64,000 nt of DNA from an uncultured Lachnospiraceae bacterium (GCA_964568425.1 CAZMPO010000011.1:634-64633), one strand, 5' to 3'. Counted from the first letter of the stretch, positions 7,653-62,783 are shown. The notes: generated by a model not told the origin, from the letters alone. A program made the numbers and translations.

Positions 7653-8647
7653 TTGTTTTCCTCAAATACAGCTTTTATTGCAAGTGCAATTTCATATGCC
7701 AAATTTACAGGCACAGCATTTCCTATCATTTTGTACGCATCATCGGCATTGGTATAAATAAACTTAAAGTCATCGGGAAACCCTTGAACTCTTGCAACCT
7801 CTCTCACAGTCATTCGTCTGTACAAGTGTTCCTGTCCTTCTACAAATCTACAATCGTTATGACCCACCTTAACCATTTTAGGTGCTTGCGGATGTAACTG
7901 ACATTGACGTCCCGATGCCTGAACAGTAAAAGCCTGTTCATTCCAAGACTTAACTCTATTTCGACTCATAAATATCGGTGAATAAGAACCTGTAAAATAT
8001 TCATTGTTGTTAATTGCTTTTGGATTATGTGTATTACGATCTAATGTTGGAACAGCAGTGTCTTTGAGATCCCATATAATATCTCTCAAAGTAATTTTCT
8101 TGTTGTCATCCTCTGTCGATCCCTTCGGAAATTGAAAATCTATATTCAAATCTTTTCTAAATCCAATATAGAAAACTCGCTTTCTTTCTTGTGCTACGCC
8201 GTAATCTTTTGCATTTACCAATGTAATTGAAACATTATAACCACTTTCTTCAAACATGGATACTATATTTTTTACCGCTTCCGAATGTCTGTTAGATAAC
8301 ATTCCACTTACATTTTCGGCAAGAAAAAACTTTGGTTGCTTATCTTTCAGAATTCTGATGTATTCAAAGAAGAGTTGTCCTCGTGCATCATTAATTCCTC
8401 TTAAAGATCCGGCCTCGGACCAACTTTGACAGGGTGGTCCACCTATAATACCATCAATATCATTGGGAAAATATTTTTCTTGAATATTCCGTATATCCCC
8501 CTTAATAAGTTTAGTATGAGGATGATTTATTTCAAAAGTTTCCCATATAGTTTTATCGAATTCGTTAGCAACAGATATCGTAAAACCGGCCTTTTCGAAT
8601 CCCAGATCTAGTCCACCGCAGCCGCTAAATAAGCTTATAATTTTCAT
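7649..8647 (-). CDS. M.HaeIII-like DNA cytosine-5 methyltransferase (predicted GGCC)
   Basis: [27 protein letters not shown]; target-recognition region [34 protein letters not shown] matches M.HaeIII as I recall it; start likely ATG 8647 (alternative 8659). Confidence 0.9.
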
Positions 8648-8692
8648 TTTTATGATCATTGCTTTCACTTTGGCGAAAGCTTCCTTTCCTTG
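8645..8692 (-). promoter_or_regulatory. 45-nt hairpin-containing leader element, copy 1 (RM MTase)
   Basis: CAAGGAAAGGAA-GCTTTCGC-CAAA-GTGAAAGC-AATGATCATAAAA-ATG. Confidence 0.8.
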
Positions 8693-8784
8693 GGAATCGA
8701 GACTGCTCTTACAGAGAAAAAGCTCTGCAAAAGCAAAAAAGTAAAAAGGCAAGTGTGAACACTCATTTTCGGACAAATCTTACG

Positions 8785-10170
8785 TCATTTCCCGACGCAG
8801 AATCGATGGAATATGGCATCGACTATATCGGCAGATACGGCTCTTCCGTCTGTCTGACCTACTGCCTCCATCGCTTTTTCGATATCAAGTCCTGCGACAT
8901 CGGGGGTGAACCCGCCGTCAAGGGCGGATATTGCGTCATTGACAGACGAAAGTGCCAGAGTGATCGACGCGTATTGACGTGCGTTTGCTATCACTGCCTC
9001 GTTATCATAATCGACAAGTCCGGTCGCGAAAAGCTCGGCTACGGCGAACGAAAGCTCGTCAAAGCCCTCTCCGCTCAGAGCGGATACGGTGAGCACCTTA
9101 TCAAAATCAAGCTTTGATATCTCATCGGTGCAAAGAGCCTCTCCGAGATCGGATTTATTTACAAGTGCGATCTTCGGACAATTTTTGTCCTTCAGTGCCG
9201 AAACAAGTTCAATATCGTCATCTGTCAGTTTGGAACTTCCGTCGAAAACGGCAAGCACGAGATCGGCGGACGAAAGTGCCTCAAGCGATCTCTTGACGCC
9301 TATCTGCTCTATCTCGTCCTCACTCTCACGCACACCTGCGGTATCGGTAAGTCGAATGAGCAGTCGGCCGAGGGTTATGCTCTCCTCGATTGTATCGCGT
9401 GTCGTCCCCGCAACAGAGCTTACTATTGCACGGTCTGTTCCGAGCAGGCGGTTTAAGACCGATGATTTACCCGTATTGGGTCTGCCGACAAGCACTGCCG
9501 ATATTCCCTCTCTGACAAGTCTTGCGCTCTCATATCCGCCCGAAAGCTTATTCAGCTTTTCTTTTATCTCGACAAGCGAGTCACGCATCTGCTCGGGGGT
9601 AACATCCGAGAGGTCCTCGTCGGGGTAATCGGCATAAACATACGCCGCGCTTACAAGATCTCGAAGGCTCTCATAGATCTCCGAAAGGCGTGTAGACAGC
9701 CGCCCCGAGACCTGTGAGCGTGCGAGCGATATCTGATCGTCGGTCTTTGCGTCTATGAGATCGATAACAGCCTCGGCTTCGGTGAGTGTCAATTTTCCGG
9801 ACAAAAAGGCACGCCTTGTGAACTCGCCCGCACTCGCCGCGCGTGCTCCCGACGCGAGAGCGGCGGCAAGCACCTTTTCGGCAAGCAGTATGCCTCCGTG
9901 GCAGGATATCTCGACGGTATCCTCTCCGGTATAAGATGAGGGAGCACGGAAGGTCGTGGCGATGCCGTCATCTATGATCTGTCCGTCTGCGATAATTTGA
10001 CCGTAGACAGCGGTTCTCGGCGAAATATCGGTGAGCCCTTTCCCCGAGGCAGGCAAAAACATTGATGACGCAACGGCAAATGCCTCGATGCCGGAGATGC
10101 GTATAACGGCAACTCCCCCTCTGCCGTACGGGGTGGATATTGCGGCGATCGTATCTAACATTTCGATCAT
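8785..10170 (-). CDS. mnmE: tRNA modification GTPase MnmE (TrmE)
   Basis: DTIAAISTP.G.GGVAVIRISG, GEFTRRAF, GRPNTGKSS, GTTRD, DTAG, NKSD, C-terminal FCVGK. Confidence 0.97.
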   Translation of the reverse strand: MIEMLDTIAAISTPYGRGGVAVIRISGIEAFAVASSMFLPASGKGLTDISPRTAVYGQIIADGQIIDDGIATTFRAPSSYTGEDTVEISCHGGILLAEKVLAAALASGARAASAGEFTRRAFLSGKLTLTEAEAVIDLIDAKTDDQISLARSQVSGRLSTRLSEIYESLRDLVSAAYVYADYPDEDLSDVTPEQMRDSLVEIKEKLNKLSGGYESARLVREGISAVLVGRPNTGKSSVLNRLLGTDRAIVSSVAGTTRDTIEESITLGRLLIRLTDTAGVRESEDEIEQIGVKRSLEALSSADLVLAVFDGSSKLTDDDIELVSALKDKNCPKIALVNKSDLGEALCTDEISKLDFDKVLTVSALSGEGFDELSFAVAELFATGLVDYDNEAVIANARQYASITLALSSVNDAISALDGGFTPDVAGLDIEKAMEAVGQTDGRAVSADIVDAIFHRFCVGK

Positions 10171-10171
10171 A

Positions 10172-10966
10172 TCAGTTCTTTGCGTCAAACTCAAGGTTTA
10201 TGTACTTGATGCAAAGATCCATCCAAACAGCCACATGGGGATCGCCTGTCGCAAGTCCTAGTCCGTGATCGCCGTAGGGGAAAACATGAAGCTCGAACGG
10301 GATCTTCTTTGCTGACAGTGCCGCCGCCATCATCAGCGAATTTTCGGGCGGAACGCCTCTGTCGCCGGCGGTCGTCCAGATAAAGCAGTGCGGTGTATCA
10401 TCCCTTACCGATTTTTCGCAAGACATTTTTTCAGCAAGTGCCTTGTCGTACTCCTCGCCGAGCAGGCAGTTTGTGCTGCCCCAATGAGTAAACTCACTGC
10501 CGATCGTGATCACGGGATAGCAAAGCACGGCAAGATCGGGGCGGCAGGATATTTTGTCTATCTCATCGCCGTCATCTCTGCCGTAGTCAAAGAAGCACGC
10601 GGCTGTTGCGGCAAGGTGACCGCCTGCCGAAAATCCGAGAACAGCTATCTTGTCCTCGGCATAGCCGTATTTTGCCGCCATCGATCTGACAAGTCGAACA
10701 GCGCGATTAACATCATTTTGGGGAATCGGGTGTCTGTACGGATTGTGGCGATAACGAAGGATGAACGCAGATATACCGCCTGCGTTGAGTGCGGTGGCGA
10801 TCGGTTCTCCCTCATGTTCCTCGGCGCGGAAGAAATAGCCGCCGCCGGGGATGACGATGACGCACTTATCCGAGCCCTCTATCGTTCGGTCGAGAAGGCA
10901 GGGCTCCTCAAGTCCTTTTTCGGGATCAAAATCGGGTGTGGTCTCCCAAAGTTTAATTACATCCAT
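10172..10966 (-). CDS. Alpha/beta hydrolase (acetylesterase/BD-FAE-like)
   Basis: PGGGY oxyanion motif, GFSAGGH nucleophile, D...VP and HGLGL catalytic His region. Confidence 0.85.
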   Translation of the reverse strand: MDVIKLWETTPDFDPEKGLEEPCLLDRTIEGSDKCVIVIPGGGYFFRAEEHEGEPIATALNAGGISAFILRYRHNPYRHPIPQNDVNRAVRLVRSMAAKYGYAEDKIAVLGFSAGGHLAATAACFFDYGRDDGDEIDKISCRPDLAVLCYPVITIGSEFTHWGSTNCLLGEEYDKALAEKMSCEKSVRDDTPHCFIWTTAGDRGVPPENSLMMAAALSAKKIPFELHVFPYGDHGLGLATGDPHVAVWMDLCIKYINLEFDAKN

Positions 10967-11012
10967 TTATGAAATACCTCTTTTCACGGAATTTTTTTAC
11001 TTTATCGCGATA

Positions 11013-11041
11013 ATTATAGCACAGCTTGTACGTCTTGTCAA
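11013..11041 (-). promoter_or_regulatory. SigA promoter for the esterase-mnmE-RM-mnmM-rsmF run
   Basis: Perfect TTGACA-17-TATAAT on the minus strand. Confidence 0.85.
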
Positions 11042-11070
11042 TCTTTTTCTGATTTTTTTCGCAAAAACTC

Positions 11071-11099
11071 TTTACAAGACGAAAAATATAATGTATAAT
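11071..11099 (+). promoter_or_regulatory. SigA promoter for glyA (divergent)
   Basis: TTTACA-17-TATAAT. Confidence 0.8.
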
Positions 11100-11133
11100 A
11101 GTCTTAATCAAAACACAGGTCAAAAAAGGAGAC

Positions 11134-12399
11134 ATGATCATGATAAAAGAAAACCTTGAGTTTCTCAGAGACTTCGACCCTGCGGTCGCCGAGGCAATCG
11201 AAAGCGAGCTTATGCGTCAGCAAAGCAAAATAGAGCTTATCGCGTCCGAGAATTTCGTTTCGAAGGCAGTGCTTGCGGCAAATGCGTCGGTCCTCACAAA
11301 CAAATATGCGGAGGGATATCCCGCCCACCGTTATTACGGCGGATGCGAATGCGTTGACATCGTTGAAAACATCGCTCGCGACAGAGCCTGCAAGCTGTTC
11401 GGCGCAGACCACGCAAACGTTCAGCCGCATTCGGGCGCACAGGCAAACACAGCGGTCTACACCGCCCTTCTGCACCCCGGTGACACCGTCATGGGCATGA
11501 ATCTGGCGCACGGCGGACACTTGACCCACGGCAGTCCCGTTAACATCTCGGGCATGCTTTACAACTTCGTCCCCTATGGAGTCAACGACAGCGGATACAT
11601 CGATTACGACCGTGTCGAGGAGATCGCACGCGAGTGCCGTCCGAAGCTGATCGTCGCGGGAGCATCCGCATATCCGAGGATCATTGATTTCGAGCGTTTC
11701 TCGCAGATTGCCAAATCGGTCGGTGCCTATCTCATGGTCGACATGGCACACATCGCCGGGCTTGTTGCCGCAGGTCTTCATCCCTCTCCGATCCCCTACG
11801 CGGACATAGTTACGACGACCACCCACAAAACGCTGCGCGGACCTCGCGGTGGTATGATACTCTGCAAGGATGAGTTCGCAAAAGCAATCGACAAGGCAAT
11901 ATTCCCGGGCACGCAGGGCGGTCCGCTCATGCACACGATCGCCGCAAAGGCAGTCTGCTTCGGCGAGGCATTAAAGCCCGAGTTTGTCGACTATGCGAAA
12001 AAGATCATCGCCAACGCGAAAACATTTGCGAGCGCCTTTGAGAAAAACGGATTTGACATGGTCTCGGGCGGCACGGACAATCACCTCATTCTGCTTGATC
12101 TGCGCTCCTTCAACATCACCGGCAAGGACTTCGAGCACAGGCTTGACGATATCAATATCACGACAAACAAAAACGGCATTCCGAACGATCCGCAAAAACC
12201 GTTCGTCACGAGCGGTCTGCGCGTCGGAACGCCTGCCGCAACGACGAGAGGTCTTCGCGGTGAGGATTTCGAGCAGATCGCCGAGATATTTGCCGTTGCC
12301 GCAAGAGCCGCGTCCGATGTGTTCGACGCAACCGTCGATTCACTGCGTGTCGAGGTAAAGCGCATTACCGACAAATATCCGCTTTACGCCGAGAACTGA
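11134..12399 (+). CDS. glyA: Serine hydroxymethyltransferase
   Basis: [36 protein letters not shown] (PLP lysine). Confidence 0.98.
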
Positions 12400-12408
12400 G
12401 GGATCTGT

Positions 12409-13068
12409 ATGGGCAATGCAGATAAAACAAAGGAAGAAGAAAAGATCGACGCGGGTATACTCTTTTTCCCCGGCGATCCCGAGCTCAAGGCAATTAAGCT
12501 CAGAACGCACAATTTAAGCGTCGATTACAACAGGACCTACGAGGACGAGGTCGAAAAGCGTGCCGCGATACTGTCGGACATATTCGGCGAGCTTGGCGAG
12601 GGGGCATTCATCCAAGGACCGATCGCCATCCATTACGGCAAGCACACGAAGATAGGCAAACGCTTTTTCGGAAATTTCAACCTAACGATACAGGATGACG
12701 CCGAGGTCACCATCGGGGATGACTGCAATTTCGGCCCGAACGCCACCATTGTGACCCCTCTGCATCCTATGCTTTCGGATGAGAGGACAGCGATAATGAC
12801 CCCCGACGGCACGCCGAGGCGGCTTTGTTGGGCAAAACCCGTACACATCGGAAACGGATGCTGGTTTGGCGCGGGTGTCACCGTCTGCCCGGGTGTCACG
12901 ATAGGCAACGAGTGCGTGATAGGTGCGGGGGCGGTCGTGACTCGCGACATTCCCGACGGTCACTTTGCGGCAGGCGTTCCGGCTCGCATTATCCGAAAGC
13001 TCGGCAAGGAAGACAGCATGGCGAATTTCCCCGACATCCTTGCCGACAACAAAATTATTGAAAAATAA
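12409..13068 (+). CDS. Maltose/galactoside O-acetyltransferase family (hexapeptide repeat)
   Basis: Hexapeptide repeats, PVHIGNGCWFGAGVTVCPGVTIG, GVPARIIR. Confidence 0.85.
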   Translation: MGNADKTKEEEKIDAGILFFPGDPELKAIKLRTHNLSVDYNRTYEDEVEKRAAILSDIFGELGEGAFIQGPIAIHYGKHTKIGKRFFGNFNLTIQDDAEVTIGDDCNFGPNATIVTPLHPMLSDERTAIMTPDGTPRRLCWAKPVHIGNGCWFGAGVTVCPGVTIGNECVIGAGAVVTRDIPDGHFAAGVPARIIRKLGKEDSMANFPDILADNKIIEK

Positions 13069-13095
13069 GAAAAACAAGGTCAAAAGGAGGTCAAA

Positions 13096-14025
13096 ATGAC
13101 CGAATTTGAAAGAATCAAAAAGCTCGATCCTCCGTCAGGGGTGGTCGACGTAATACTCGACACCGACGCGTACAACGAGATCGACGATCAGTTTGCCATT
13201 TCGTACATGCTCGCGCGCTCCGACAAACTGCGTGTGAGAGCCATCACCGCGGCACCATTTTTCCATCCTCACAATCACAACTCGACATCGGCTCGTGACG
13301 GCATGGAAAAAAGCTATAACGAAATACAAAAGCTACTGACGCTTGCCGAAAAAGAAGTGCTGTCGAGCAAGGTTTTTCGCGGATCCGAGAATTTTCTGCC
13401 GGACGAGCTCACACCCGTCGAGTCGCCCGCCGCAAGAGAGATGATCGCCGCCGCGAGCGAACACACGCCCGACGATCCGCTCTATATCGTTGCGATCGGC
13501 GCGATAACGAATGTTGCCTCCGCGATACTGCTCTGTCCCGAAATGGTCGAAAAGACCGTACTTGTATGGCTGGGCGGACACGCCGATTTTTGGCAGGACA
13601 CGAACGAGTTCAACATGTGTCAGGATGTTGCCGCCGCGCGCATCGTTTTTGGGTGCGGCATTCCGCTGATACAGCTTCCCTGCATGGGCGTCGTTGACAA
13701 ATTCGATACGACAGAGCCCGAGCTTCGCCACTGGCTCTCGGGCAAAAACAAACTCTGCGACTATCTTGTCGAAAACGCATCTGCTGCGGCGAACAGCTAC
13801 GCATCCGGAAAACCGTGGTCACGCGTAATATGGGATGTCACGGCGGTTGCATGGCTGACAAACGAGTCGGGCAGATTTATGTCGTCAAAGCTCATTCCCG
13901 CTCCCATCCCCGAATACGATCATCACTACGGATTCGATCCGCGCAGGCACATGATCCGTGCGGTGACATGGATAAACAGGACCGAGCTGTTTGCCGAGCT
14001 GTTTGACAAACTATCGAAAATGTGA
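13096..14025 (+). CDS. Nucleoside hydrolase (IU-NH family)
   Basis: ILDTDAYNEIDDQFA, AIGAITNVA, EFN...D, IWDV. Confidence 0.85.
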   Translation: MTEFERIKKLDPPSGVVDVILDTDAYNEIDDQFAISYMLARSDKLRVRAITAAPFFHPHNHNSTSARDGMEKSYNEIQKLLTLAEKEVLSSKVFRGSENFLPDELTPVESPAAREMIAAASEHTPDDPLYIVAIGAITNVASAILLCPEMVEKTVLVWLGGHADFWQDTNEFNMCQDVAAARIVFGCGIPLIQLPCMGVVDKFDTTEPELRHWLSGKNKLCDYLVENASAAANSYASGKPWSRVIWDVTAVAWLTNESGRFMSSKLIPAPIPEYDHHYGFDPRRHMIRAVTWINRTELFAELFDKLSKM

Positions 14026-14047
14026 TACAAAGGAAAGGACAACCGAA

Positions 14048-14983
14048 ATGAACATCGAATTTCTCTCAAACACCAACATCGATTTCAAGCCGAAGCAGGC
14101 AGAGCTTACGATCGGCACGCGGCGCACATCGACAAAGCTTGCCTGCCGTGACCCATTCATCATGCCGCTTGACGGTAAATATTATCTTTACAAAACGGAG
14201 GGCGGCAAGCTTTGCGTTTTGGTCAGTGACGATCTGGAGCATTGGACCGACCCGATCGTCGTATTCGATCCTCCCGCCGACTTTCACGGTGTAAGCGATC
14301 TGTTCTGGGCACCCGAATGCCATTTTTACAAGGGCAAGTTTTACATATTCACATCCGTTTATTCGTCAAGGTTCAACCACCGCACGATCGCGGTCTACCG
14401 CTCGGACGATCCGCTCGGACCGTTTGTTGACATATCGGACGGTGCGATATCCCCTCGCGATTGGGATGCCATTGACGGCACGCTTTACATTGACAAGACG
14501 GGTGCGCCTTGGCTTGTGTTCGTTCATGAATGGACATCAATGCCAAACGGCAACGGCGGAATGGTCGCGGCAAGGCTTTCGGACGATTTTACGCACCTCG
14601 TCTCCGAACCGATCGAGTTTTTCCTTGCAAGGGACGCAAAATGGGCAACTTCGGGCGTGACAGACGGTCCGTACATGCTCAGAACCGATAGTGGGCTTTA
14701 CATGATATGGTCAAACTTTTGCAAAGACGGTTACGCCGTCGGACTTGCAAAATCGACAAACGGCGAGATCGACGGGCAATTCATCCAGAGCGACGAGCCG
14801 ATCTACACGATCGGGCTAAAGTCGTCATTTACGACCGACGGCGGTCACGCGATGATATTTGTCGATCACGACGGAAATGTAAAGATCACAATGCACGGTC
14901 CGAACAGTTCCCCGGATGATTTTGAGCATGTTCTGCTCTTTGACATCATTGAAAAGGACGGGGTGCTCGAGATCGTCGGCTAA
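14048..14983 (+). CDS. Glycoside hydrolase family 43
   Basis: RDPF, WAPE, AIDG, TDGP, GGH five-bladed beta-propeller motifs; SD AAGGAAAGGA before ATG 14048. Confidence 0.85.
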   Translation: MNIEFLSNTNIDFKPKQAELTIGTRRTSTKLACRDPFIMPLDGKYYLYKTEGGKLCVLVSDDLEHWTDPIVVFDPPADFHGVSDLFWAPECHFYKGKFYIFTSVYSSRFNHRTIAVYRSDDPLGPFVDISDGAISPRDWDAIDGTLYIDKTGAPWLVFVHEWTSMPNGNGGMVAARLSDDFTHLVSEPIEFFLARDAKWATSGVTDGPYMLRTDSGLYMIWSNFCKDGYAVGLAKSTNGEIDGQFIQSDEPIYTIGLKSSFTTDGGHAMIFVDHDGNVKITMHGPNSSPDDFEHVLLFDIIEKDGVLEIVG

Positions 14984-14991
14984 CCTCATCA

Positions 14992-15028
14992 GCAAGCCCT
15001 TTCCGCACTAAACTCGGGAAGGGCTTGC
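14992..15028. terminator. Hairpin after the GH43 gene
   Basis: GCAAGCCCTTTCCG...CGGGAAGGGCTTGC; no T tract on the plus strand. Confidence 0.5.
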
Positions 15029-15076
15029 AAAAAGTATAAAAAATTTGGAAAAGTGCAATTTTTTTCGAAAAAGCCC

Positions 15077-15105: not shown

Positions 15106-15111
15106 CATGGG

Positions 15112-18806: not shown

Positions 18807-18854
18807 CAAAGAAAGGAAGCTTTCGCCAAAGCGAAGGCAATGGGCATAAAATTG
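18807..18854 (+). promoter_or_regulatory. 45-nt hairpin-containing leader element, copy 2 (topA)
   Basis: CAAAGAAAGGAA-GCTTTCGC-CAAA-GCGAAGGC-AATGGGCATAAAA-TTG; 46/53 ungapped identity (18802-18854) to the reverse complement of 8645-8697. Confidence 0.8.
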
Positions 18855-54557: not shown

Positions 54558-55780
54558 TTAAGTATAAATTTATGGTAGACCTTTTTGCCTTTCCTGACTA
54601 TCACATCTTTGCCCTCAAAGAATGCCTTATCGAGCGTGAGATTGACATCGGTCACTTTCTCGTCGCAAAGTGTAACGCCGCCCTGCTGAACAAGTCTTCT
54701 TGCCTCGCCTTTTGAAGCGGCAAGCGAGCCCTTGACCATCATATCGAGAAGTCCGATCTTACCATCGGTCAGGTCGGCATCGGTCAGAGCGGTCGAGGGC
54801 ATATCAGCCGACGATCCGCCGCCCGCGAAAACGCTCTTTGCGGCATTCTGTGCCTTTTGCGCCTCATCCTCACCGTGAACAAGCTTTGTAAGCTCGTATG
54901 CAAGTATCTCCTTGGCGCGATTTAACTGTTCGCCCTCCCAGGAGCTCATTGCGTCTATCTCCTCGATCGGGAGGAAGGTGAGCATTCTTATGCACTTCAT
55001 TACGTCGGGATCGGCGACATTTCTCCAATACTGATAGAAATCGTAAGGGGATGTCTTGTTCGGATCAAGCCATACGGCATTTCCCGCGGTCTTGCCCATC
55101 TTATGACCCTGCGAATCGGTGAGCAAAGTGATGGTCATCGCGTGTGCGTCTTTTCCGAGTTTACGACGGATAAGCTCTGTTCCGCCGAGCATATTCGACC
55201 ACTGATCGTCGCCGCCGAACTCCATATTACAGCCGTATTCCTTGAACAGATGGTAGAAGTCGTAGGACTGCATGATCATATAGTTAAATTCAAGGAAGGA
55301 GAGTCCTTTCTCCATTCTCTGCTTATAGCACTCGGCGCGAAGCATATTATTGACAGAGAAGCAAGCGCCGACCTCGCGGAGAAGGTCGATATAATTAAGA
55401 TCAAGGAGCCAATCGGCGTTGTTGACCATTTTTGCCTTACCCTCGCCAAACTCGATGAATTTTTCCATCTGACGCTTGAAGCATTCGGCGTTATGATCGA
55501 TATCCTCTTTTGTCAGCATCTTGCGCATATCGGTCCTGCCCGAGGGGTCACCGATCATTGTCGTACCGCCGCCGATAAGTGCGATCGGCTTATTGCCTGC
55601 CATCTGCAGACGCTTCATGAGCGTAAGTGCCATAAAATGTCCGGCAGTCAGGCTATCCGCCGTACAGTCAAATCCGATATAAAATGTCGCCCTTCCCTCA
55701 TTGATCATGTTTTTGATCTCTTCTTCATTTGTGACCTGAGCGATAAGCCCTCTGGCGACAAGCTCTTCGTAAATTTTCAT
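54554..55780 (-). CDS. tyrS: Tyrosine-tRNA ligase
   Basis: YIGFDCTADSLTAGH, GDPSGR, GGDDQWSN, KMGKT, C-terminal S4 domain. Confidence 0.97.
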   Translation of the reverse strand: MKIYEELVARGLIAQVTNEEEIKNMINEGRATFYIGFDCTADSLTAGHFMALTLMKRLQMAGNKPIALIGGGTTMIGDPSGRTDMRKMLTKEDIDHNAECFKRQMEKFIEFGEGKAKMVNNADWLLDLNYIDLLREVGACFSVNNMLRAECYKQRMEKGLSFLEFNYMIMQSYDFYHLFKEYGCNMEFGGDDQWSNMLGGTELIRRKLGKDAHAMTITLLTDSQGHKMGKTAGNAVWLDPNKTSPYDFYQYWRNVADPDVMKCIRMLTFLPIEEIDAMSSWEGEQLNRAKEILAYELTKLVHGEDEAQKAQNAAKSVFAGGGSSADMPSTALTDADLTDGKIGLLDMMVKGSLAASKGEARRLVQQGGVTLCDEKVTDVNLTLDKAFFEGKDVIVRKGKKVYHKFILN

Positions 55781-55831
55781 TTTAGTATAGTCCCTTCTTA
55801 AATAATTATTTTCATTTATCTATGGTACGGT

Positions 55832-57526
55832 TCACACATCATGTCCCGCGTTTTTAAGCATCTCGACGGCACTCTCGTATATTTTCTCGGACGGTGTTAC
55901 GCCGCCCATGATCCTTGCAAGCTCGTCGGCACGCTCGGAAATATCGAGTTCTCTGACAGTCGTTTCGGACATGCCGTCGATCTCGTGTTTTTCGATCTTC
56001 AAATGGTGATCGGCATTGGCGGACACCTGTGCCGAATGGGTGATCGAGATGACCTGCATATATTCTGAAAGATCGTGAAGCTTTATGCCTATCTTTTGCG
56101 AGGTCTTGCCCGAAACTCCGGTATCGATCTCGTCAAAGATGACGGTCGGTATGCCCTCGGCGTTTGTCAGCACACACTTTATCGCGAGCATTATACGCGA
56201 CATTTCGCCGCCCGACGCGATCTTTGCAAGCGGCTTGAGTGGCTCGCCCGGATTTGTCGATATAAGAAATTCGACATCATCCGTTCCTGTTTGGCAAAGC
56301 AGACCGTCCTCCTCGCGACGTCTCTTGACACCGACTCTGAATATGACCTTTTCCATGTCAAGATATTCGAGTATCGAGCAAACACCGCACGAGAGCGTCT
56401 CTGCCGCCTCGATTCGCTTTTTTGAGAGTTTGTCGGCGACCTCAAGCGCCGCTTGTCTGTTTTTCTCGAAGATCTGACCGTATTCCTTGATTTTTTCATC
56501 GGATACCATTATCTCGCCAAGTTCTTTTTTTGCCTTATCGAGGAAATCGAGCACCTCGGGCACAGATGCGCCGTATTTGCGCTCCAGCTTGTGGATGGTA
56601 TCAAGTCTGTCTTCTATCTTCGACAGTGCCGCCTCGGGATCGTCACAGTCTCTCGGAAGTACCGAATATGCCGCATCGGCTATCGATGAAAGCTCATATT
56701 GCATATCGTAAAGCTTATCCGAGAAAGCCATCGCATTCGGAACGAGGTCGGCAATATCGTCAAGCGATTTTCTTGCTATCTCGATGAGCCTGTATGCCGA
56801 CATTCCCTTCTCGTTTTTGTAAAGGGCACGATAAAGTGTGTTTATCTGCTTTGATATCTGCTTTGCATTGACAAGAACATTCTTCTCTGCCCGAAGCTTT
56901 TCTTCCTCATCAGCTTTAAGCTTTGCGGACTCGATATCGTTTATCTGAAATTTCAGCATATCGATACGTTGCTGTTTTTCGCGCTCGTCCTTTTTTATCG
57001 CGTCTGCGCGACGGCGAGCATCAAGCATCGCGTCATAGTACTTTCTGTACTCGCAAAGAAGGCTGTCATTATGCGCAAACTTGTCGAGATACGAAATATG
57101 GGCACCGGGATCGAGGAGTGCGCGGCTGTCGTGCTGACCATGAATATTTATAAGCAGACCGCCGACCTCTCTTTGAAGCGAGAGCGGTATCGCCCTGCCG
57201 TTAAACTTGGTCGCCGATCTTCCGTCGGCATTCACCGATCTTTGAATGAAAACGCACCCGTCCTCATCCGCCGACAGTCCGAGAGCATCAAGTGCCGCCA
57301 AGACATTTTCGGGCAGATCACCGAAAAGTGCGCTTACGGATGCACGATTTTGACCTGTTCTTATAAGTTCCTTTGAAAACTTATCTCCGAGAACAAGTCC
57401 GATCGAATCGATGATTATCGATTTACCGGCACCAGTTTCGCCTGTCATGACTGAAAATCCGTGCTCAAGATCAAGATCTACCGAGCGTATCACGGCTATA
57501 TTTTCTATATGAAGCGAGATCAGCAT
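55832..57526 (-). CDS. recN: DNA repair protein RecN
   Basis: TGETGAGKS, IHGQHD, ASGGEMSR, IFDEIDTGVSG. Confidence 0.97.
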   Translation of the reverse strand: MLISLHIENIAVIRSVDLDLEHGFSVMTGETGAGKSIIIDSIGLVLGDKFSKELIRTGQNRASVSALFGDLPENVLAALDALGLSADEDGCVFIQRSVNADGRSATKFNGRAIPLSLQREVGGLLINIHGQHDSRALLDPGAHISYLDKFAHNDSLLCEYRKYYDAMLDARRRADAIKKDEREKQQRIDMLKFQINDIESAKLKADEEEKLRAEKNVLVNAKQISKQINTLYRALYKNEKGMSAYRLIEIARKSLDDIADLVPNAMAFSDKLYDMQYELSSIADAAYSVLPRDCDDPEAALSKIEDRLDTIHKLERKYGASVPEVLDFLDKAKKELGEIMVSDEKIKEYGQIFEKNRQAALEVADKLSKKRIEAAETLSCGVCSILEYLDMEKVIFRVGVKRRREEDGLLCQTGTDDVEFLISTNPGEPLKPLAKIASGGEMSRIMLAIKCVLTNAEGIPTVIFDEIDTGVSGKTSQKIGIKLHDLSEYMQVISITHSAQVSANADHHLKIEKHEIDGMSETTVRELDISERADELARIMGGVTPSEKIYESAVEMLKNAGHDV

Positions 57527-57589
57527 TTACCGTCCTCCTCTCCGTTTATATATATCTATTATTATATACGTTATATATCGTTTGGGTCT

Positions 57590-58048
57590 TCAATTACCGG
57601 TTCGGAAGGGCTCGGCAAGTCTCCTTGCGATCGACGACGCCGCAGATGTTGTATGCGCGACGGCAAAAATGGTATCATCGCCCGCTATCGTTCCGAGGAT
57701 CTCCTCGCCGAATATCGCATCTATAGCTGCTGCTGCCGCCTGTGCCATGCCCGAGTAGGTCTTGACAACTACAAGATTGTTCGCGTGATCGACCGAAACA
57801 ACGGTCTCACGCATTATATTCATATATTTGGCGTTAGGACGCCGATCACCGCTTGAGGCGGCGGCGTACTTATATCCGCCGTTTTTCGACGCAACCTTTA
57901 TAAGCTCAAGCTCACGTATATCGCGAGAGACGGTTGCCTGTGTAACATCATAGCCCCTTTCCTTCAGACGGTCAAGGAGAGCCTCTTGTGTCTCGACGTC
58001 GTTTCTTGAAATAATATCAAGTATCACTTCCTGGCGTTTGTTCTTCAT
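57590..58048 (-). CDS. argR: Arginine repressor
   Basis: TQATVSRDIREL, GTIAGDDTIF. Confidence 0.96.
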   Translation of the reverse strand: MKNKRQEVILDIISRNDVETQEALLDRLKERGYDVTQATVSRDIRELELIKVASKNGGYKYAAASSGDRRPNAKYMNIMRETVVSVDHANNLVVVKTYSGMAQAAAAAIDAIFGEEILGTIAGDDTIFAVAHTTSAASSIARRLAEPFRTGN

Positions 58049-58843
58049 TCAAGTTTTCCCTTTCAAAACAAGATCGCTGATTTCGGATATATCAAGCGGT
58101 AAATTGTCACTGCCGTCCCTCGAATAGTGAAAATACGCAAGATACTCCGTATTTCCGTCTCCACCGCGTATCGGAGATCTGATAAGTCCCGCGCAGTAAA
58201 GGTGATGCATGCGTGCGACATCGATGACATGTTTTATGACAGATATGTGTACATGCAAATCCTTGACGATTCCGCCCTTACCGATATTTTCTCTGCCTGC
58301 CTCGAATTGAGGCTTTATAAGGCTGACAAACTCGCCTTTATCGGAAAGTATCTTTGTGACCGACTCAAAGACGAGCGTCTGAGAGATAAACGAAAGATCG
58401 CTGACGACAATGTCGCAGAATGTACCGAGATCATTTGCACAAAGTTCTCTTGCGTTTATTCCTTCCATATTGACAACGCGCGCATCGGATGCTATATCGG
58501 GGTGGAGCTGTCCACTGCCGCAGTCGACGGCGTACACGCGCCGAGCTCCCGATCGAAGCATCAGATCGGTAAATCCGCCGGTCGACGCTCCGAGATCGCA
58601 GGCGATCTTGTTCGCAAAATCAAGCGAAAATGCCGATTTTGCCGCCTCAAGCTTCAATCCGCCGCGACTGACATACGGATACGGTCTGCCTGTCACCTCG
58701 ACCTTGTCATTTTCGCCGACATCCGTGCTGTCCTTTGAAACGATCTTTCCGTTAAGCGTCACAAATCCGCCCGAGATCAGCTCTTTTGCCTTTTGTCTGC
58801 TTTCGGCAAGCGAGTGCTCGGCAAGATATTTATCGATTCTCAT
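58049..58843 (-). CDS. tlyA: TlyA family rRNA 2'-O-methyltransferase
   Basis: S4 domain, YVSRGGLKL, DLGASTGGFT, DLSFIS, LIKPQFE, GGDGNTEY. Confidence 0.95.
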   Translation of the reverse strand: MRIDKYLAEHSLAESRQKAKELISGGFVTLNGKIVSKDSTDVGENDKVEVTGRPYPYVSRGGLKLEAAKSAFSLDFANKIACDLGASTGGFTDLMLRSGARRVYAVDCGSGQLHPDIASDARVVNMEGINARELCANDLGTFCDIVVSDLSFISQTLVFESVTKILSDKGEFVSLIKPQFEAGRENIGKGGIVKDLHVHISVIKHVIDVARMHHLYCAGLIRSPIRGGDGNTEYLAYFHYSRDGSDNLPLDISEISDLVLKGKT

Positions 58844-58856
58844 ACACAAATACCGT

Positions 58857-59750
58857 TCAGAATTTTCTGTTCTTCAAATAGTCGGCAAAATCGCAGAGAA
58901 GATCGCGCTTTTGATAGTGTGAAATGGCATCGACCGCCTTCTCTGTCATAACATCGGCAAGCTGACGTGCCAGATCGACCGGCATAAAGGACAAATAGGT
59001 GGTCTTATGATTTTTTTCATCCGATCCTGCCGACTTGCCGATCTCCTCTGCGGTAGAGCAGGCGTCCATTATATCATCAACGAGCTGAAATACCCTGCCG
59101 ACGCCTTCCGCATAGGTATCAAGATCGGCAATGGTCTGATCATCGACGGCATCGGCAGCAAGCGCGCCGAGTCTGCATGCGCACTTTATAAGCTCGACCG
59201 TCTTGAGATTATGGATCTTGATCATCGTCTCATACTCGATCTTCTCGCCCTCAAGCGAGACATCCATCTCCTGACCCGCGATCATCCCCGAAGGTCCTGC
59301 GGCACGAGATAAGAATTCAACGGCTTTGATCCTGTGCTCCGCCGATATCGACGTATCGGTCGACACGGTCTCGAAAGCAAATGTGAGAAGTGCATCTCCT
59401 GCAAGGACCGCGCGGGCATCGCCGTACACCTTATGGCAGGTCGGTCTTCCGCGTCTTAGATCATCGTTATCCATGCAAGGCAGATCGTCGTGTATGAGCG
59501 AATATGTATGTATCATTTCGAGTGCGGCGGCATAGGTCAGTGCCTCGTCGCGATCTCCAAACAGCATGTCGGACACAGCAAGCACGAGAAATGGTCTGAC
59601 CCGTTTTCCGCCCCCGAGCAGGCTGTACGACATTGCGTCGTAGAGTTTTTTTATATCATTATCGGAGTTAGCAAGCAGTGCCGAGAGTTTATTTTCGACA
59701 AGAGCCGCCATTGTTTGCATTTTTTCTTCAATGATCGACATGACCGCCAT
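58857..59750 (-). CDS. ispA: Farnesyl diphosphate synthase (polyprenyl synthetase)
   Basis: GGKRVRP, SLIHDDLPCMDNDDLRRG, FQLVDD. Confidence 0.93.
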   Translation of the reverse strand: MAVMSIIEEKMQTMAALVENKLSALLANSDNDIKKLYDAMSYSLLGGGKRVRPFLVLAVSDMLFGDRDEALTYAAALEMIHTYSLIHDDLPCMDNDDLRRGRPTCHKVYGDARAVLAGDALLTFAFETVSTDTSISAEHRIKAVEFLSRAAGPSGMIAGQEMDVSLEGEKIEYETMIKIHNLKTVELIKCACRLGALAADAVDDQTIADLDTYAEGVGRVFQLVDDIMDACSTAEEIGKSAGSDEKNHKTTYLSFMPVDLARQLADVMTEKAVDAISHYQKRDLLCDFADYLKNRKF

Positions 59751-59752
59751 CC

Positions 59753-60004
59753 TCACACCTCAGATGTTTCGGTCTTCTTGACAAAATCTTCCTCGTGAAG
59801 ACCGTCTCCGCCGTCAACGAGAATTTTGATGCGACGCTCGGCATTTGAGAGCGTACTGTTGCATATGCCGACAAGTCTGACGCCCTCCTCGTAAAGGGTT
59901 ATGGATCTGTCAAGCGATATCTCGCCGCTCTCGAGTGCGCGGACTATCTGTTCAAGTCGAGCAAGTGCCGCCTCAAAGGATATCTCTTTATCCGTGTTGT
60001 TCAT
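59753..60004 (-). CDS. xseB: Exodeoxyribonuclease VII small subunit
   Basis: SFEAALARLEQIV..LESGEISLD.SI.LYEEG. Confidence 0.95.
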   Translation of the reverse strand: MNNTDKEISFEAALARLEQIVRALESGEISLDRSITLYEEGVRLVGICNSTLSNAERRIKILVDGGDGLHEEDFVKKTETSEV

Positions 60005-60020
60005 TACATCAATATTCTGA

Positions 60021-61247
60021 TCAGCCGTTCCCATATTCGAAAGGCTCCTTTCCGATAACTTTTCCGATTATTCTTCCGTCGGTCGTTCGAACCGCCAAGT
60101 TTTCACCGATCTCAACATCGCCGATCGATCTCACTACCCTGCCATCTTTATCGAGAGCGACCGAGTAGCCGCGTGAAAACACGGCAAGCGGACTCAGCGC
60201 GTCAAGCTTTGCCGCCTTTTCGGCAAGATCCGTCCGATTTTTCGCACAAACGACCTTCATTGCCGCCGAGAGGCTCTGTGTGTCGGCAACAAGTGCCATT
60301 TTCCTTTGATCGAGCATAGACATCGGGTCGCTTATGACCTTCGACTGCCTAAGATGCTCGAAAAGCTGTTTTTTCAGACCGATCTGCTTCGAGAGCAGGG
60401 TCTGCATGTGTGTCGTTATATTGTTGACCTTTCTGATCAGCTCGCCCGTATCGGGGAGAGCAAGCTCGGCTGCAGCCGACGGTGTCGGTGCACGCAGATC
60501 CGCAACGAAATCGGATATGGTAAAATCTATCTCATGTCCGACCGCGGATATCACGGGAATTGCAGATGCGTATATCGCCCTTGCAAGCGTCTCGTCATTG
60601 AATGCCCACAGATCCTCGATCGAGCCGCCGCCTCTGCCGATTATGATGAGATCGACCGACCCGACCCTGTTAAAAAATTCTATTCCCGAAACGAGCTGGG
60701 GCGGCGCATCGCTTCCTTGAACAAGTGCGGGATAGATAACAAGCTTAGCGTAAGGAAAACGCCTGCCCGCTATGTTTATGATATCTCTGACCGCCGCACC
60801 CGTCGGCGAGGTTATTATTCCGACTCTCGTGGGTATCTTCGGGATCGGTTTCTTTTTCGCCGTATCAAAAAGTCCCTCGGCGGCAAGCTTTCTTTTCAGC
60901 TGCTCGAAAGCTATCGTCAATGCTCCGACGCCGTCGGGTTCCATTGAAGTAACATATATCTGATAGCTGCCGTCTCTGACAAATGCGGATATTCTGCCGT
61001 GGGCGGTCACCTTCATCCCGTTTTCGGGTTCAAATGCAAGTTTTGATGCCTCTCTGGCAAACATAACCGCCTTCAGGTTTGATGTCGCGTCCTTCAGCGT
61101 GAAATAGAGATGCCCTGTTTTGTGATGCGTAAAGTTGGATATCTCGCCCTTAACGTACACATTCGATATGGTCTTATCGTTATCAATGATCGCTTTAATA
61201 TACTCGTTAAGCTGTGTGACAGTAAGTGTCAAGCGTTCGGTTGCCAT
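60021..61247 (-). CDS. xseA: Exodeoxyribonuclease VII large subunit
   Basis: GEISN, GHLYFTLKD, RGGGSIEDLWAFN, SAVGHE.D, APTPSAAAE. Confidence 0.97.
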   Translation of the reverse strand: MATERLTLTVTQLNEYIKAIIDNDKTISNVYVKGEISNFTHHKTGHLYFTLKDATSNLKAVMFAREASKLAFEPENGMKVTAHGRISAFVRDGSYQIYVTSMEPDGVGALTIAFEQLKRKLAAEGLFDTAKKKPIPKIPTRVGIITSPTGAAVRDIINIAGRRFPYAKLVIYPALVQGSDAPPQLVSGIEFFNRVGSVDLIIIGRGGGSIEDLWAFNDETLARAIYASAIPVISAVGHEIDFTISDFVADLRAPTPSAAAELALPDTGELIRKVNNITTHMQTLLSKQIGLKKQLFEHLRQSKVISDPMSMLDQRKMALVADTQSLSAAMKVVCAKNRTDLAEKAAKLDALSPLAVFSRGYSVALDKDGRVVRSIGDVEIGENLAVRTTDGRIIGKVIGKEPFEYGNG

Positions 61248-61259
61248 TGGGGTCTCCTT

Positions 61260-62183
61260 TCAAGCATTGTGATCATTGTGATCGTGTGCGCGTGCGGCAA
61301 GGACAGCTATGCCTGCCGCGTTATCGCAGGAATATTCTGCCTCCGAAAAATATACATTGCCGCATTTCGCAAGACCGTTTTGTATAAGCTTATTGCTCAT
61401 CACTCCGCCCGCATATACAACGGGCAGATCGCCAAATGTCTCGCGCGCGTTTTCGGTCAGCCTCTCGATCGTTCGCAAAACACTTTTTATCGTGAACGCG
61501 GCAACGATCGATCTGTCCTCGCCGTCGTCTATAAGCTTTGTCGCCTTGCTTTCAAGTCCGGACAAATTGCACTCAAGACCTCTTACATGCGAGATGCAGT
61601 TTACATCGGCAAGCGGCGCGGCGATTTTCTCAAGCTCTCTGCCGCACGGAAAGGGGATGCCGAGTCTGACGCCTATCCGATCGATCGCCTGACCTGCGTT
61701 AAGATCGATCGTTCCGCCTATTTTGCCAATGGTTCCGTTTTCGACAAGAAGCAGTTCTGTTGTGCCGCCGGATACATGAAATGCGATAAATCTTTCGTTC
61801 CAAAGATCGGTCCTGCCCGCCGAATAGAGTGCCGCCATGACATGCCCCTGTTGGTGCGAAAGCTCGTAAAGCGGTATCCCGCAGACAGACGACAGTGCTT
61901 TTGCCGCCGCGTATCCGGTCAAAAAGCAGGGCATGTACGATCCCTCAACATCGCGTGGACGGGTCGAAACACCGATCGCCGACAGCTCGCGCCTGCCGAT
62001 ACGCTCAAAGAGTATCGGCAGATTTTTGGTATGGCAGAACACCGCGTCCGACTGTCTGATTCCCCTCTCGCCTTCTTTGACCTTGACAGGGAGCTTTTCG
62101 TTTGCGATGATCCTGTCTCCGTCGAAAAGCGAGAGCGAGGTCGTGTAATTGCTCGTATCAATGCCGAGAAACAGTCCGCTCAT
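61260..62183 (-). CDS. TsaD/Kae1-like paralog (function uncertain)
   Basis: LGIDTSNYTTS, SHQQGH, HVSGGTTE, AGQAIDR, GGVMSN, DNAAGIA. Confidence 0.8.
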   Translation of the reverse strand: MSGLFLGIDTSNYTTSLSLFDGDRIIANEKLPVKVKEGERGIRQSDAVFCHTKNLPILFERIGRRELSAIGVSTRPRDVEGSYMPCFLTGYAAAKALSSVCGIPLYELSHQQGHVMAALYSAGRTDLWNERFIAFHVSGGTTELLLVENGTIGKIGGTIDLNAGQAIDRIGVRLGIPFPCGRELEKIAAPLADVNCISHVRGLECNLSGLESKATKLIDDGEDRSIVAAFTIKSVLRTIERLTENARETFGDLPVVYAGGVMSNKLIQNGLAKCGNVYFSEAEYSCDNAAGIAVLAARAHDHNDHNA

Positions 62184-62602
62184 TTTTCGTCTTTTTTATT
62201 TTGGGTCTTAAGACCCTTATCGGTCGCGATCTTGTTCAAAATACCGTTGATAAAGGACGGCGCCTTCTCGTGATCGTATTTTTTTGCAAGCTCGACCGCC
62301 TCGTTGATCGCGACAGCGAAAACCAGATCGGTATGGATCATCTCGTATACTGCCAGACGAAGGATCGCAAGCGTGACCCTTGACAGACGCGACAGCTTCC
62401 ATCCCTTTGCATTACTCTCGATCAAAAGATCGATCTCTTCTATGTGTTCGATCACACCGTGATATCCGTTCAGGATATATGCGGCATCGTAATCTCTTTG
62501 AGTCTTTTCAATTTCGAGAATGTCCTCGGCAGCGGTGATCTCCGAAAAGGACATTTCAAACAGAAGTGCAAAAAGCGCTTCCCTTTCTTCTCGCCTTGTC
62601 AT
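62180..62602 (-). CDS. nusB: Transcription antitermination factor NusB
   Basis: TRREERE, W.L.RL, AINEAVELAKKY, FINGIL. Confidence 0.96.
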   Translation of the reverse strand: MTRREEREALFALLFEMSFSEITAAEDILEIEKTQRDYDAAYILNGYHGVIEHIEEIDLLIESNAKGWKLSRLSRVTLAILRLAVYEMIHTDLVFAVAINEAVELAKKYDHEKAPSFINGILNKIATDKGLKTQNKKDEK

Positions 62603-62633
62603 ATCAGTTCTCCATTTTAAGCTTATTCATCAT

Positions 62634-62662
62634 ATTATACAATAAAAACTCGCAAATGTCAA
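62634..62662 (-). promoter_or_regulatory. SigA promoter of the nusB operon
   Basis: Perfect TTGACA-17-TATAAT with TG. Confidence 0.88.
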
Positions 62663-62700
62663 GATGTTGCAAACTTTATTTTGAATTTGCCGTTAAAATA

Positions 62701-62729
62701 TTGAAATTTTCTTCATTTTGTGCTACAAT
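62701..62729 (+). promoter_or_regulatory. SigA promoter for queH
   Basis: TTGAAA-17-TACAAT with TGn; predicted start site near 62736. Confidence 0.7.
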
Positions 62730-62735
62730 GATCTT

Positions 62736-62783
62736 CAAGGAAAGGAATCTTTCGTCAATGGCGAAAGCGGTGATAACAAAATG
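62736..62783 (+). promoter_or_regulatory. 45-nt hairpin-containing leader element, copy 3 (queH)
   Basis: CAAGGAAAGGAAT-CTTTCGTC-AAT-GGCGAAAG-CGGTGATAACAAA-ATG. Confidence 0.75.

Follow-up and report, generated by a model that had tools for sequence, protein, structure and literature searches.

A dispersed bacterial repeat that docks at start codons and carries a candidate replacement translation-initiation region

MIRUs (mycobacterial interspersed repetitive units) are intercistronic operon repeats that run in the same direction as the genes and are tied to downstream translation; they act via small open-reading frames whose stop and start codons overlap the neighbouring genes, and the STAB-SD of Bacillus thuringiensis cryIIIA is an SD-like GAAAGGAGG far upstream of the gene, thought to bind the 16S tail. 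The nearest known case to the leader described here, and already named as its precedent in the original prediction, is that of phage T4 genes 25 and 38, where a hairpin intervenes between a distant Shine-Dalgarno (SD) sequence and the start codon. In these split initiation regions (Nivinskas et al. 1999; Malys and Nivinskas 2009; summarised in PMC3014915), the hairpins shorten the SD spacing: in gene 38 it falls from 22 to 5 nt, in gene 25 from 27 to 11 nt, as established by mutation and probing.

In the window (the whole stretch of DNA analysed, 64,000 nucleotides), genes for a C5 DNA methyltransferase (MTase), topoisomerase I (topA) and QueH are preceded by a shared leader, and direct checking gave the same coordinates and sequence for the three copies as had been claimed. 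The copy upstream of the MTase (8645–8692, minus strand; covariance model 72.5 bits, E 5e-10) runs from an SD, GGAAAGGA (8689–8682), through hairpin arms at 8680–8673 and 8668–8661 around a CAAA loop, to a box AAUGAUCAUAAAA (8660–8648) and an ATG (8647–8645). The topA copy (18807–18854, plus strand; 71.2 bits) has the SD AGAAAGGA (18810–18817), arms at 18819–18826 and 18831–18838, the box at 18839–18851 and a TTG start (18852–18854), whilst the queH copy (62736–62783, plus strand; 58.9 bits) carries GGAAAGGA again (62739–62746), arms at 62749–62756 and 62760–62767 around an AAU loop, GGUGAU (62769–62774) and an ATG (62781–62783). The distance from AAAGGA to the start is 34 nt in each copy by direct count, and each stem has one G-U pair, both as predicted. 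The likeness of the MTase and topA leaders, originally put at 46/53, also stands (~45/52 on recounting, 41/46 by BLAST). Two statements had to be revised: the element reaches further upstream than the 45 nt proposed, and the window holds, beside the three copies, a degenerate fourth. A degenerate leader pattern gave no matches in 100 shuffles, and a chance origin of the shared leader is excluded.

The start codons are backed by comparison, as topA orthologues have a TTG or ATG at the same position, queH orthologues support its ATG, and homologues of the MTase elsewhere share this ATG, with ordinary SDs in front of it. A predicted sigma-70-type promoter (TTGAAA-17-TACAAT with a TG extension; 62701–62729, plus strand), likewise kept in sister species G001, would put the queH transcript start at ~62736, the 5′ edge of the leader, which agrees with the original prediction as far as a consensus scan can tell. 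The topA leader lies in a metatranscriptome contig covering 18617–18892 (one contig, low depth, undirected).

Searching the 1.9-Mb genome to which the window belongs (G000) with the covariance model detected seven copies (E 5e-10 to 2e-7; next match E 0.35), and several degenerate copies are also present. The genes behind them encode the DNA methylase, TopA, QueH, DnaB, TrkH and an RluA-type synthase, and have no common theme. The leader module is carried by 13 of 61 relatives and is present in dozens of Oscillospirales assemblies from gut and rumen, with the exact leader pattern at 50 loci in ~35 assemblies, yet its spread is patchy (10/201 family genomes at E ≤ 1e-6). All carriers are uncultured assemblies. 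Genome G035 contains at least 83 near-identical copies, and there the module precedes dozens of unrelated genes; the portability originally claimed is borne out. Some 90% of copies run precisely up to the start codon of a long open-reading frame, in one orientation and irrespective of its function. The element is a dispersed repeat that docks at gene starts. Rfam matched only tRNA in the window at gathering threshold, and nothing at E ≤ 1 in six leader loci and the long repeat described below, consistent with the earlier remark that this is not a named family.

The hairpin is conserved as a structure. Aligned hairpins were paired in 98% of cells (40–50% in slid controls), with compensatory changes in five of eight stem pairs and a covariation score of 0.229 against 0.148 in shuffles, a value reached by none of 500. 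Predicted folding energies of leader hairpins are −10.5 and −12.1 kcal/mol (z −2.9 and −2.5), and in the queH leader an alternative, SD-sequestering fold is the minimum free energy (MFE) structure (−9.1 kcal/mol). Wobble pairs are biased to the sense strand, with 12 G-U/U-G against one C-A. Many genera share a strongly conserved stem sequence, GCUUUCGC/GCGAAAGC, a conservation that could mean recent spread rather than selection.

In G035 the leader closes, on the 3′ side, a ~138-nt repeat with four to five hairpins, all of which covary; the consensus there stands at 70–99% per column, 74 left-end hairpins were found, and element lengths are 109–157 nt. Comparisons between orthologues indicate lineage-specific gains. 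Before topA, eight genus members have a plain GAAAGGA-N8-9-start and the leader hairpin occurs only in G000 and G001; queH has the leader in the same two genomes only, its relatives showing a canonical SD or a stop/start overlap. An mtnN-like gene carries a ~79-nt insertion in G001 where the G000 site is empty, the dnaJ site is filled in G035 and empty in G104 and G105, which keep the native SD on the left, and the RM locus described below is a further case of presence and absence at orthologous sites. The repeat begins ~3 nt past the gene's own SD in G035, where an SD match ends 0–4 nt before its left end in 31 of 43 copies, compared with 5 of 43 control windows. Its ends, AAGTTTGAAAG... and ...CCATGGTCAT, are not terminal inverted repeats, no consistent target-site duplication was found in 43 flank pairs, and a search of six genomes for PF01797 (Y1/HUH transposase) matched only in G035, in a frameshifted gene with no repeat copy within 1.5 kb. 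Mobility, rather than a regulon, best accounts for the spread of the repeat.

The window itself contains a restriction-modification (RM) cassette of 3 kb bracketed by a full and a degenerate module, and the whole block is an insertion relative to G001. The degenerate copy, GGAAAAGA-TATTTCGCGAAAG-TAACGATCATAAAAAAT (5694–5733, minus strand; identified by a BLAST match to C11:6329-6348 and by comparison with G001), lies directly after the stop of the last RM gene, has lost its SD and had its loop deleted, and the next gene has its own AAGGAGG. At the other end, the upstream part of the inserted element precedes the MTase leader (8693–8784, minus strand); compared with the long-repeat consensus, it contains a degenerate version of that repeat's TTTTGC..GCAAAA hairpin and CCCCAATTCC linker. 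G001 lacks this segment, the stop of the upstream gene joining AATAACAATTAAGGAGG directly as in an empty site.

What is kept in the copies is not uniform along the repeat. Orthologous copies in G000 and G001 retain SD and stem whilst loops and spacer vary, and old copies, G000's among them, preserve only SD, last hairpin and box as the upstream modules decay. SD and stem are under selection, and copies that are not needed decay: where there is no dependent gene, at 5694–5733 in the window and at G001 C12, SD or stem has been lost. The essential genes dnaB and topA have no other SD within 30 nt, and the same is true of two essential genes in G035 which, from their first N-terminal residues, we take to be CysS-like and ATP-synthase-beta-like.

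Spacing is similarly constrained, with 32–35 nt from GGA to start in 104 of 118 copies and 12–14 nt from hairpin to start in 106 of 118. GAAAGGA is the commonest SD of the genome, with an aligned-spacing peak at 7–8 nt. With the hairpin taken out, 1 nt plus 12–14 nt (~14 nt) would separate SD and start, which is longer than the 9–10 nt usual after GAAAGGA in this genome and longer than in T4 gene 25. At the canonical SD position the copies have just a weak GGU/UGAU, the strong SD lying >20 nt upstream of the start.

On balance, we think it probable that the leader is the gene-proximal 3′ module of a once- or now-mobile REP/BOX/MITE-like repeat, and that it is equipped with a replacement translation-initiation region like that of T4 genes 25 and 38. 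The repeat would insert in or next to ribosome-binding sites, typically ~3 nt after the gene's own SD and 4–6 nt before the start, and such insertion would be tolerated because the repeat brings its own region: (A)GAAAGGA, the SD that this clade prefers, then one A and the 8-bp hairpin, a short box with the consensus A-U-G-G-U-C-A-U (UGAU/GGUGAU in the window genome) and an A-rich run up to the start codon. The hairpin in the mRNA would loop out ~20 nt, so that the start could still be reached from an SD 32–35 nt upstream, and the GGU/UGAU box, which stands where an SD normally lies, may contribute a few further base pairs with the 16S tail that binds this SD. What we infer is initiation from the distal SD, a hairpin that forms in the mRNA and is needed there, and the route by which the repeat moves.

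A stricter version of this idea, which we regard as possible but tentative, is a true split SD, as proposed originally, in which the 16S tail pairs with AGAAAGGA and with GGU(C)AU or UGAUC across the hairpin; the junction would then set the start at canonical spacing, so that both halves would be required. The 16S 3′ end is absent from the assembly and from 61 family genomes, and RNAcofold was therefore run with an assumed Firmicutes tail, GAUCACCUCCUUUCU. With this tail, a three-way junction is the predicted MFE structure in six of eight tested leaders, the topA and TrkH copies being the exceptions, and in 54% of 123 distinct copies compared with 13% when the 3′ box is shuffled, although the copies share ancestry and this enrichment is thus not independent evidence. 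AGAAAGGA plus GGU forms a gap-free complement of ACCUCCUUUCU, queH has GGAAAGGA..GGUGAU, the box is conserved even though the loop is free to vary, and positions −10/−9/−8 from the start are G/G/U in 78/69/78% of copies, the positions occupied by the end of GGAGG in normal genes. However, the predicted energy gain is just ~1 kcal/mol, position −7, where G is expected, is G in 7% of copies, conservation of the box could equally mark the end of a mobile element, and seven sister species have a different, single-copy hairpin at the same place before topA with no GGU/UGAU box after it. The original interpretation is partly supported, and the box as a second SD half is plausible in silico. At the opposite pole, the repeat might be purely selfish, its hairpins serving as single-stranded DNA signals for a transposase or recombinase, with the weak proximal GGU and A-rich region driving translation whilst distal SD and hairpin stand idle. 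The insertion polymorphisms, the >80 near-identical copies in G035, the covariation of every hairpin in the long repeat and the insertion of the RM cassette as a block between two modules all speak for it, and a one-strand G-T wobble bias would also fit hairpins formed in single-stranded DNA for transposition. We nevertheless find this doubtful, as old copies keep just the SD, last hairpin and box, SD and stem are lost where no gene needs them, the four genes named above have no other nearby SD, the SD-to-start distance is tightly held, and no linked transposase turned up in the six genomes searched for Y1. A mobile element that specifically targets the few bases between SD and start and neutralises itself through a new site read as a true split SD (three-way junction), perhaps with the module also as joint of larger mobile units such as the bracketed RM block, seems to us unlikely.

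Three further readings would give the leader a different role. As a 5′ stabiliser of the mRNA, in the manner of STAB-SD in Bacillus cryIIIA and of 5′ stem-loop stabilisers, and possibly beside a translational role, the leader would hold a ribosome or 30S subunit on GAAAGGA next to the hairpin and block 5′-to-3′ decay; the strong SD, the stable hairpin and the predicted queH transcript start at the module edge are in its favour, but most copies lie within longer transcribed regions or right behind an upstream gene and the fixed distance to the start codon is left unexplained, and we find this role fairly improbable. The original prediction had also considered a common translational regulator, and a shared site defining a regulon, with either an RNA-binding protein recognising the hairpin or a dimeric DNA-binding repressor recognising the 8-4-8 palindrome, would account for a stem conserved over many genera and for the queH palindrome just downstream of its promoter. 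Against this, the downstream genes are themeless and one genome has >80 copies, stem sequence varies freely with compensation and loop length varies too, the wobble bias speaks against recognition of duplex DNA, and the family is patchily distributed; we set the regulator aside as very improbable. Least credible of all is an intrinsic terminator of antisense transcription, formed by the opposite-strand hairpin followed by UUCCUUUC(UUUC): a consensus scan flags all three window copies as terminator-like on the antisense strand, yet the 12 wobble pairs become C-A mismatches there, gene 5′ ends offer nothing obvious to terminate, and docking at start codons in one orientation would go unexplained.

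The replacement initiation region we favour can be set beside several known systems. The T4 genes likewise have the SD far upstream (22 and 27 nt, against 32–35 nt in the leader) with a stable hairpin between, and there too the arrangement arose in one lineage and is lacking in relatives. They differ in being single phage loci proven by mutation and DMS probing, whereas the leader, known from its sequence, is one cassette copied before many unrelated cellular genes, with a residual spacing of ~14 nt instead of 5 and 11 and a possible second SD half. A requirement for translation of a coupling frame, as in MIRUs, which are similarly intercistronic and gene-oriented, was considered and rejected, as the repeat has no conserved reading frame, stop codons interrupt all frames in many copies and the lengths of 109–157 nt differ by amounts that are not multiples of three. 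STAB-SD differs from the leader in stabilising mRNA with no role in initiation, and in being one locus that lacks both a fixed hairpin and a set distance to the start. The start-associated sequences (SAS/ESAS) of Cluster K mycobacteriophages (PMC3203893) resemble the leader as short SD-core repeats in one orientation just before the starts of many unrelated genes, some with an inverted repeat, their function being unproven there; SAS however span 13 bp at 3–7 bp from the start, a canonical SD spacing, and in ESAS the inverted repeat precedes the SD instead of separating it from the start (PMC3203893). SAS are also confined to phage genomes and give no sign of insertion into existing ribosome-binding sites. 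The BOX (boxA-boxB(n)-boxC), RUP and SPRITE repeats of Streptococcus pneumoniae (PMC3049150) share with our repeat a size of <200 bp, high copy number, optional hairpin modules, co-transcription with neighbours, patchiness between species and insertion polymorphism, but are enriched between convergent genes and have no fixed relation to starts. The repeat described here, unlike these, brings an SD with it and docks at start codons in a single orientation. REP/BIME, Correia and ERIC elements are modular small interspersed repeats with the same likenesses as BOX; for an origin of the REP/REPIN-RAYT or IS200/IS605 kind, no Y1 transposase flanked by the repeat was found in six genomes. By analogy with these systems, our reading is that the leader may represent a copied-cassette form of the T4-type split initiation region, housed in a REP/BOX-like repeat.

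The three leaders of the window, in front of genes for a C5 DNA methylase (MTase; 8645-8692, minus strand), topoisomerase I (topA; 18807-18854, plus strand) and QueH (62736-62783, plus strand), lie where the original prediction placed them, and direct reading shows the same layout in each: one or two bases separate (A/G)GAAAGGA from an 8-bp stem closed by a 3-4-nt loop, after which come a box with TGAT or TGGG, a stretch rich in A and finally the start codon. Direct counting likewise returned the predicted 34 nt from AAAGGA to the start in all three copies, and each stem carries the single G-U pair described, at a position that differs among them. A degenerate version of the leader pattern had no match in 100 shuffles of the window. 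Orthologues of topA begin at the same TTG/ATG and those of queH at the same ATG, and metagenome methylases 80-85% identical to the MTase share its ATG, their N-termini reading M-K/N-V/I-I-S-L-F. For the MTase leader (-10.5 kcal/mol, z -2.9) and the topA leader (-12.1 kcal/mol, z -2.5), the minimum free energy (MFE) fold predicted is the hairpin; for queH, a slightly better predicted alternative pairs GAAAG of the Shine-Dalgarno sequence (SD) with the CUUUC in the 5' arm. Sequestration of the SD by the 5' arm as a required switch was rejected, this fold being the MFE for queH only and the 5' arm sequence differing between genomes without matching SD changes. An upstream start at the xTG of the box was also discarded: only some copies have it in frame, those before TrkH and DnaB do not, and frequently it is no start codon at all. 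The sole RNA evidence is a metatranscriptome contig spanning 18617-18892 (one low-depth run, with no strand or 5'-end information), which is compatible with transcription running on from the upstream gene into topA. Upstream of queH, two back-to-back promoter-like sites are conserved in the sister species (G001): a perfect TTGACA-17-TATAAT at 62630-62662 (minus strand) and the predicted queH promoter, a TG-extended TTGAAA-17-TACAAT, at 62701-62729 (plus strand).

These leaders belong to a repeat family that is real and undescribed. No Rfam model matches the leader or the repeat, at the gathering threshold or at E<=1, which agrees with the earlier failure to recognise a named family. The search originally proposed, with a covariance model of the copies, together with BLAST, found seven clear copies in the organism's own 1.9-Mb, 40-contig assembly, and further matches in relatives; the other four clear copies precede DnaB, TrkH, an RluA-type pseudouridine synthase and a large membrane protein, and degenerate copies are also present. 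The module occurs in 12 of 60 relatives, and a genome of another genus (G035) holds at least 83 copies. When one genome per species was scanned with an exact pattern, 50 loci came up in about 35 assemblies from gut and rumen, under the labels Candidatus Flemingiibacterium, Firmicutes CAG:272 and uncultured Oscillospiraceae/Eubacteriales; such scans of viral contigs gave no match. Across 201 genomes of the family strong matches are patchy, in 10 genomes and 8 of 76 genera. About 90% of copies, in G035 and among the exact-pattern loci, stop exactly at the ATG of a long open-reading frame, and the functions encoded downstream are unrelated in both samples. Spacing is narrowly distributed, with 32-35 nt from GGA to the start in 104 of 118 distinct copies and 12-14 nt from the hairpin to the start in 106 of the 118.

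In G035, the conserved unit measures about 138 nt and the leader forms its end. Its first element is a hairpin of 11 bp, rich in A and T (GTTTGAAAGAT/ATCTTTCAAAC, which covaries with GTCTGAAAAAT/ATTTTTCAGAC), followed by a branched domain with two more hairpins and sometimes a third, the linker CCAGCCCCAATTCC, and lastly the SD, final hairpin and box. Repeat length ranges from 109 to 157 nt as modules are absent or added. Copies in the window's own genome and in the sister species retain just the last 50-80 nt, with a TTTTGC..GCAAAA hairpin and a CAATTCC linker still visible before the TrkH, MTase and topA genes. None of the reading frames checked across copies stays conserved through the repeat; a conserved upstream frame from the TTG behind the native SD was rejected, since many copies interrupt it and a third have CTG in place of TTG.

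Insertion is visible between the genome and its sister species, which are about 91-93% identical at compared loci: a ~79-nt copy stands in front of an mtnN-like gene in the sister, where our genome has an empty site, and an orphan degenerate copy is likewise present in the sister only. Before topA, the repeat's hairpin occurs in these two genomes only, and eight members of the genus have a plain GAAAGGA, 8-9 nt and the start. The queH module is also confined to the two; queH of relatives has GGAGG or GGGGA at 7-8 nt, or overlaps with the upstream stop. The hairpin-less queH leader of two relatives (G006 and G010; loci L140 and L154) contains, just past the -10 box, CGGTCATAACAAA, 12/13 identical to the post-hairpin box CGGTGATAACAAA of the window, which could be the remnant of an older element or coincidence. 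At dnaJ, G035 carries the repeat where two congeners have GAGGTG-N8-ATG, and the native SD persists to the left of it. An SD match ends 0-4 nt before the repeat's left end in 31 of 43 G035 copies, against 5 of 43 control windows, and the final 4-6 nt before the ATG vary among copies; the repeat therefore sits within the original SD-start spacer. As a target motif, nothing beyond a purine-rich SD and then A/T was seen. Terminal inverted repeats (TIRs) and target duplication were not found in the repeat ends and flanks, nor was a linked transposase. G035, alone among six genomes checked, has an IS200-type Y1 transposase gene (C2:117208-117432, locus L155), interrupted by a frameshift or stop, with no repeat copy within 1.5 kb.

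The MTase copy lies within a restriction-modification (RM) block (5694-8784, minus strand) comprising a ~90-nt upstream part of the repeat, the full leader, MTase, REase, a second MTase and a degenerate leader copy. This block is absent from the sister species (locus L157), where TAA-AATAACAATTAAGGAGG..ATG links the flanking genes, and we therefore read it as RM cargo between two modules that was inserted whole or in two steps. The leader is not part of a circulating RM cassette, as 80-85% identical MTases elsewhere have ordinary SDs and no leader.

In the covariation test proposed for the stem, on 33 copies from 14 genomes, pairing holds in 98% of cells (40-50% in slid controls), five of eight stem pairs show compensatory changes, and the covariation score lies above all 500 shuffles. 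Wobble pairs favour the sense strand over the other by 12 to 1, which points to a hairpin that is single-stranded on the sense strand, as mRNA or ssDNA. The same asymmetry conflicts with a duplex-DNA operator at the palindrome and with an antisense terminator, which terminator scans had flagged. Of the original proposals, a portable module before unrelated genes stands, whereas a translational regulator shared by the module-bearing genes is unlikely, the gene list and copy numbers speaking against it. At queH, where the predicted promoter would start the transcript at the module, the module may have a stabiliser role.

Orthologous copies in the genome and its sister keep the SD and stem, with changes in loops and A-rich spacer. 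Copies without a dependent gene have decayed: in the window, neither SD nor loop survives in the copy behind the RM genes, the next gene having its own AAGGAGG, and the orphan copy of the sister has lost its SD and part of the stem. GAAAGGA is also the commonest SD of the genome, at a usual distance of 9-10 nt. Together with the stem covariation and wobble bias, this argues that genes behind the module probably depend on its SD and on a distance-shortening hairpin; the spacing of about 14 nt left once the hairpin is looped out is the weak point. Other candidate leaders of this architecture occur. In the genome itself, outside the window, GAAAGGA with a strong hairpin of other sequence directly behind it, and 7-16 nt from there to the start codon of a long open-reading frame, occurs before further genes at C3:80370(+), C9:25229(+), C2:144015(-), C12:~20752(-) and C28:8429(-), which suggests that SD-hairpin-start leaders may be found in this organism outside the repeat family as well. 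A second, unrelated topA hairpin, TTTCCGT-loop-ACGGAA, is found in seven relatives (G015, G017, G012, G005, G009, G002 and G003; loci L118-L126 and L128-L130) directly after GAAAGGAA and 10-12 nt before the start, the same place as the repeat's hairpin; it covaries, is longer in G017, and here too the 5' arm is complementary to the SD. Each genome has a single copy, and this hairpin was rejected as another dispersed family.

The distal SD, at about 34 nt, would thus be used with the hairpin looped out in between, shortening the distance to the start. The same logic is established in phage T4, where a hairpin cuts the spacing between SD and start from 22 to 5 nt in gene 38 and from 27 to 11 nt in gene 25 (PMC3014915). 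A true split SD, with the 16S tail pairing on both sides of the hairpin in a three-way junction, is plausible. Aligned at the start, the box reads A-U-G-G-U-C-A-U-A-A-A-W (in our genome nearer UGAUC or GGUGAU), with G at -10 in 78% of copies, G at -9 in 69% and U at -8 in 78%, positions that coincide with the end of GGAGG in ordinary genes, and AGAAAGGA joined to GGU complements the Firmicutes-type tail ACCUCCUUUCU without a gap. That anti-SD was assumed because the 16S 3' end is absent from the assembly and an exact-pattern search recovered none in 61 family genomes. With it, RNAcofold predicts the junction for six of eight leaders, and in 54% of 123 copies versus 13% with shuffled boxes, although these copies are related by descent. 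Against pairing on both sides, the predicted gain is about 1 kcal/mol, G, expected at -7, is found there in 7% of copies, and the alternative topA hairpin lacks such a box.

We infer that the gene-proximal module is a portable, hairpin-bridged ribosome-binding site. If so, translation initiation across a hairpin, from an SD some 34 nt upstream, would be routine in a large group of gut Firmicutes and concern dozens of housekeeping genes; gene callers and ribosome-binding-site models expecting an SD 5-10 nt upstream would misjudge these starts; the split-TIR idea, so far limited to two genes of T4, would become testable on a natural variant series; and the module would offer a ready-made portable ribosome-binding site for poorly tractable Clostridia. 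It would also be a rare selfish repeat that makes up for the harm caused by its insertion into a ribosome-binding site, much like an intron within coding sequence. If the hairpin is instead a transposition signal alone, what remains is a new repeat family of an ordinary kind whose target preference is unusual. Open literature on split or bipartite SDs yielded the T4 work and one standby-site study only. The repeat lacks the TIR and TSD that define MITEs, and the defining features of REPIN-RAYT, MIRU and SAS. It would resemble the T4 split TIR in how it works and BOX/REP-type repeats in how it spreads (PMC3049150), and is reminiscent of the start-associated sequences found in Cluster K mycobacteriophages (PMC3203893).
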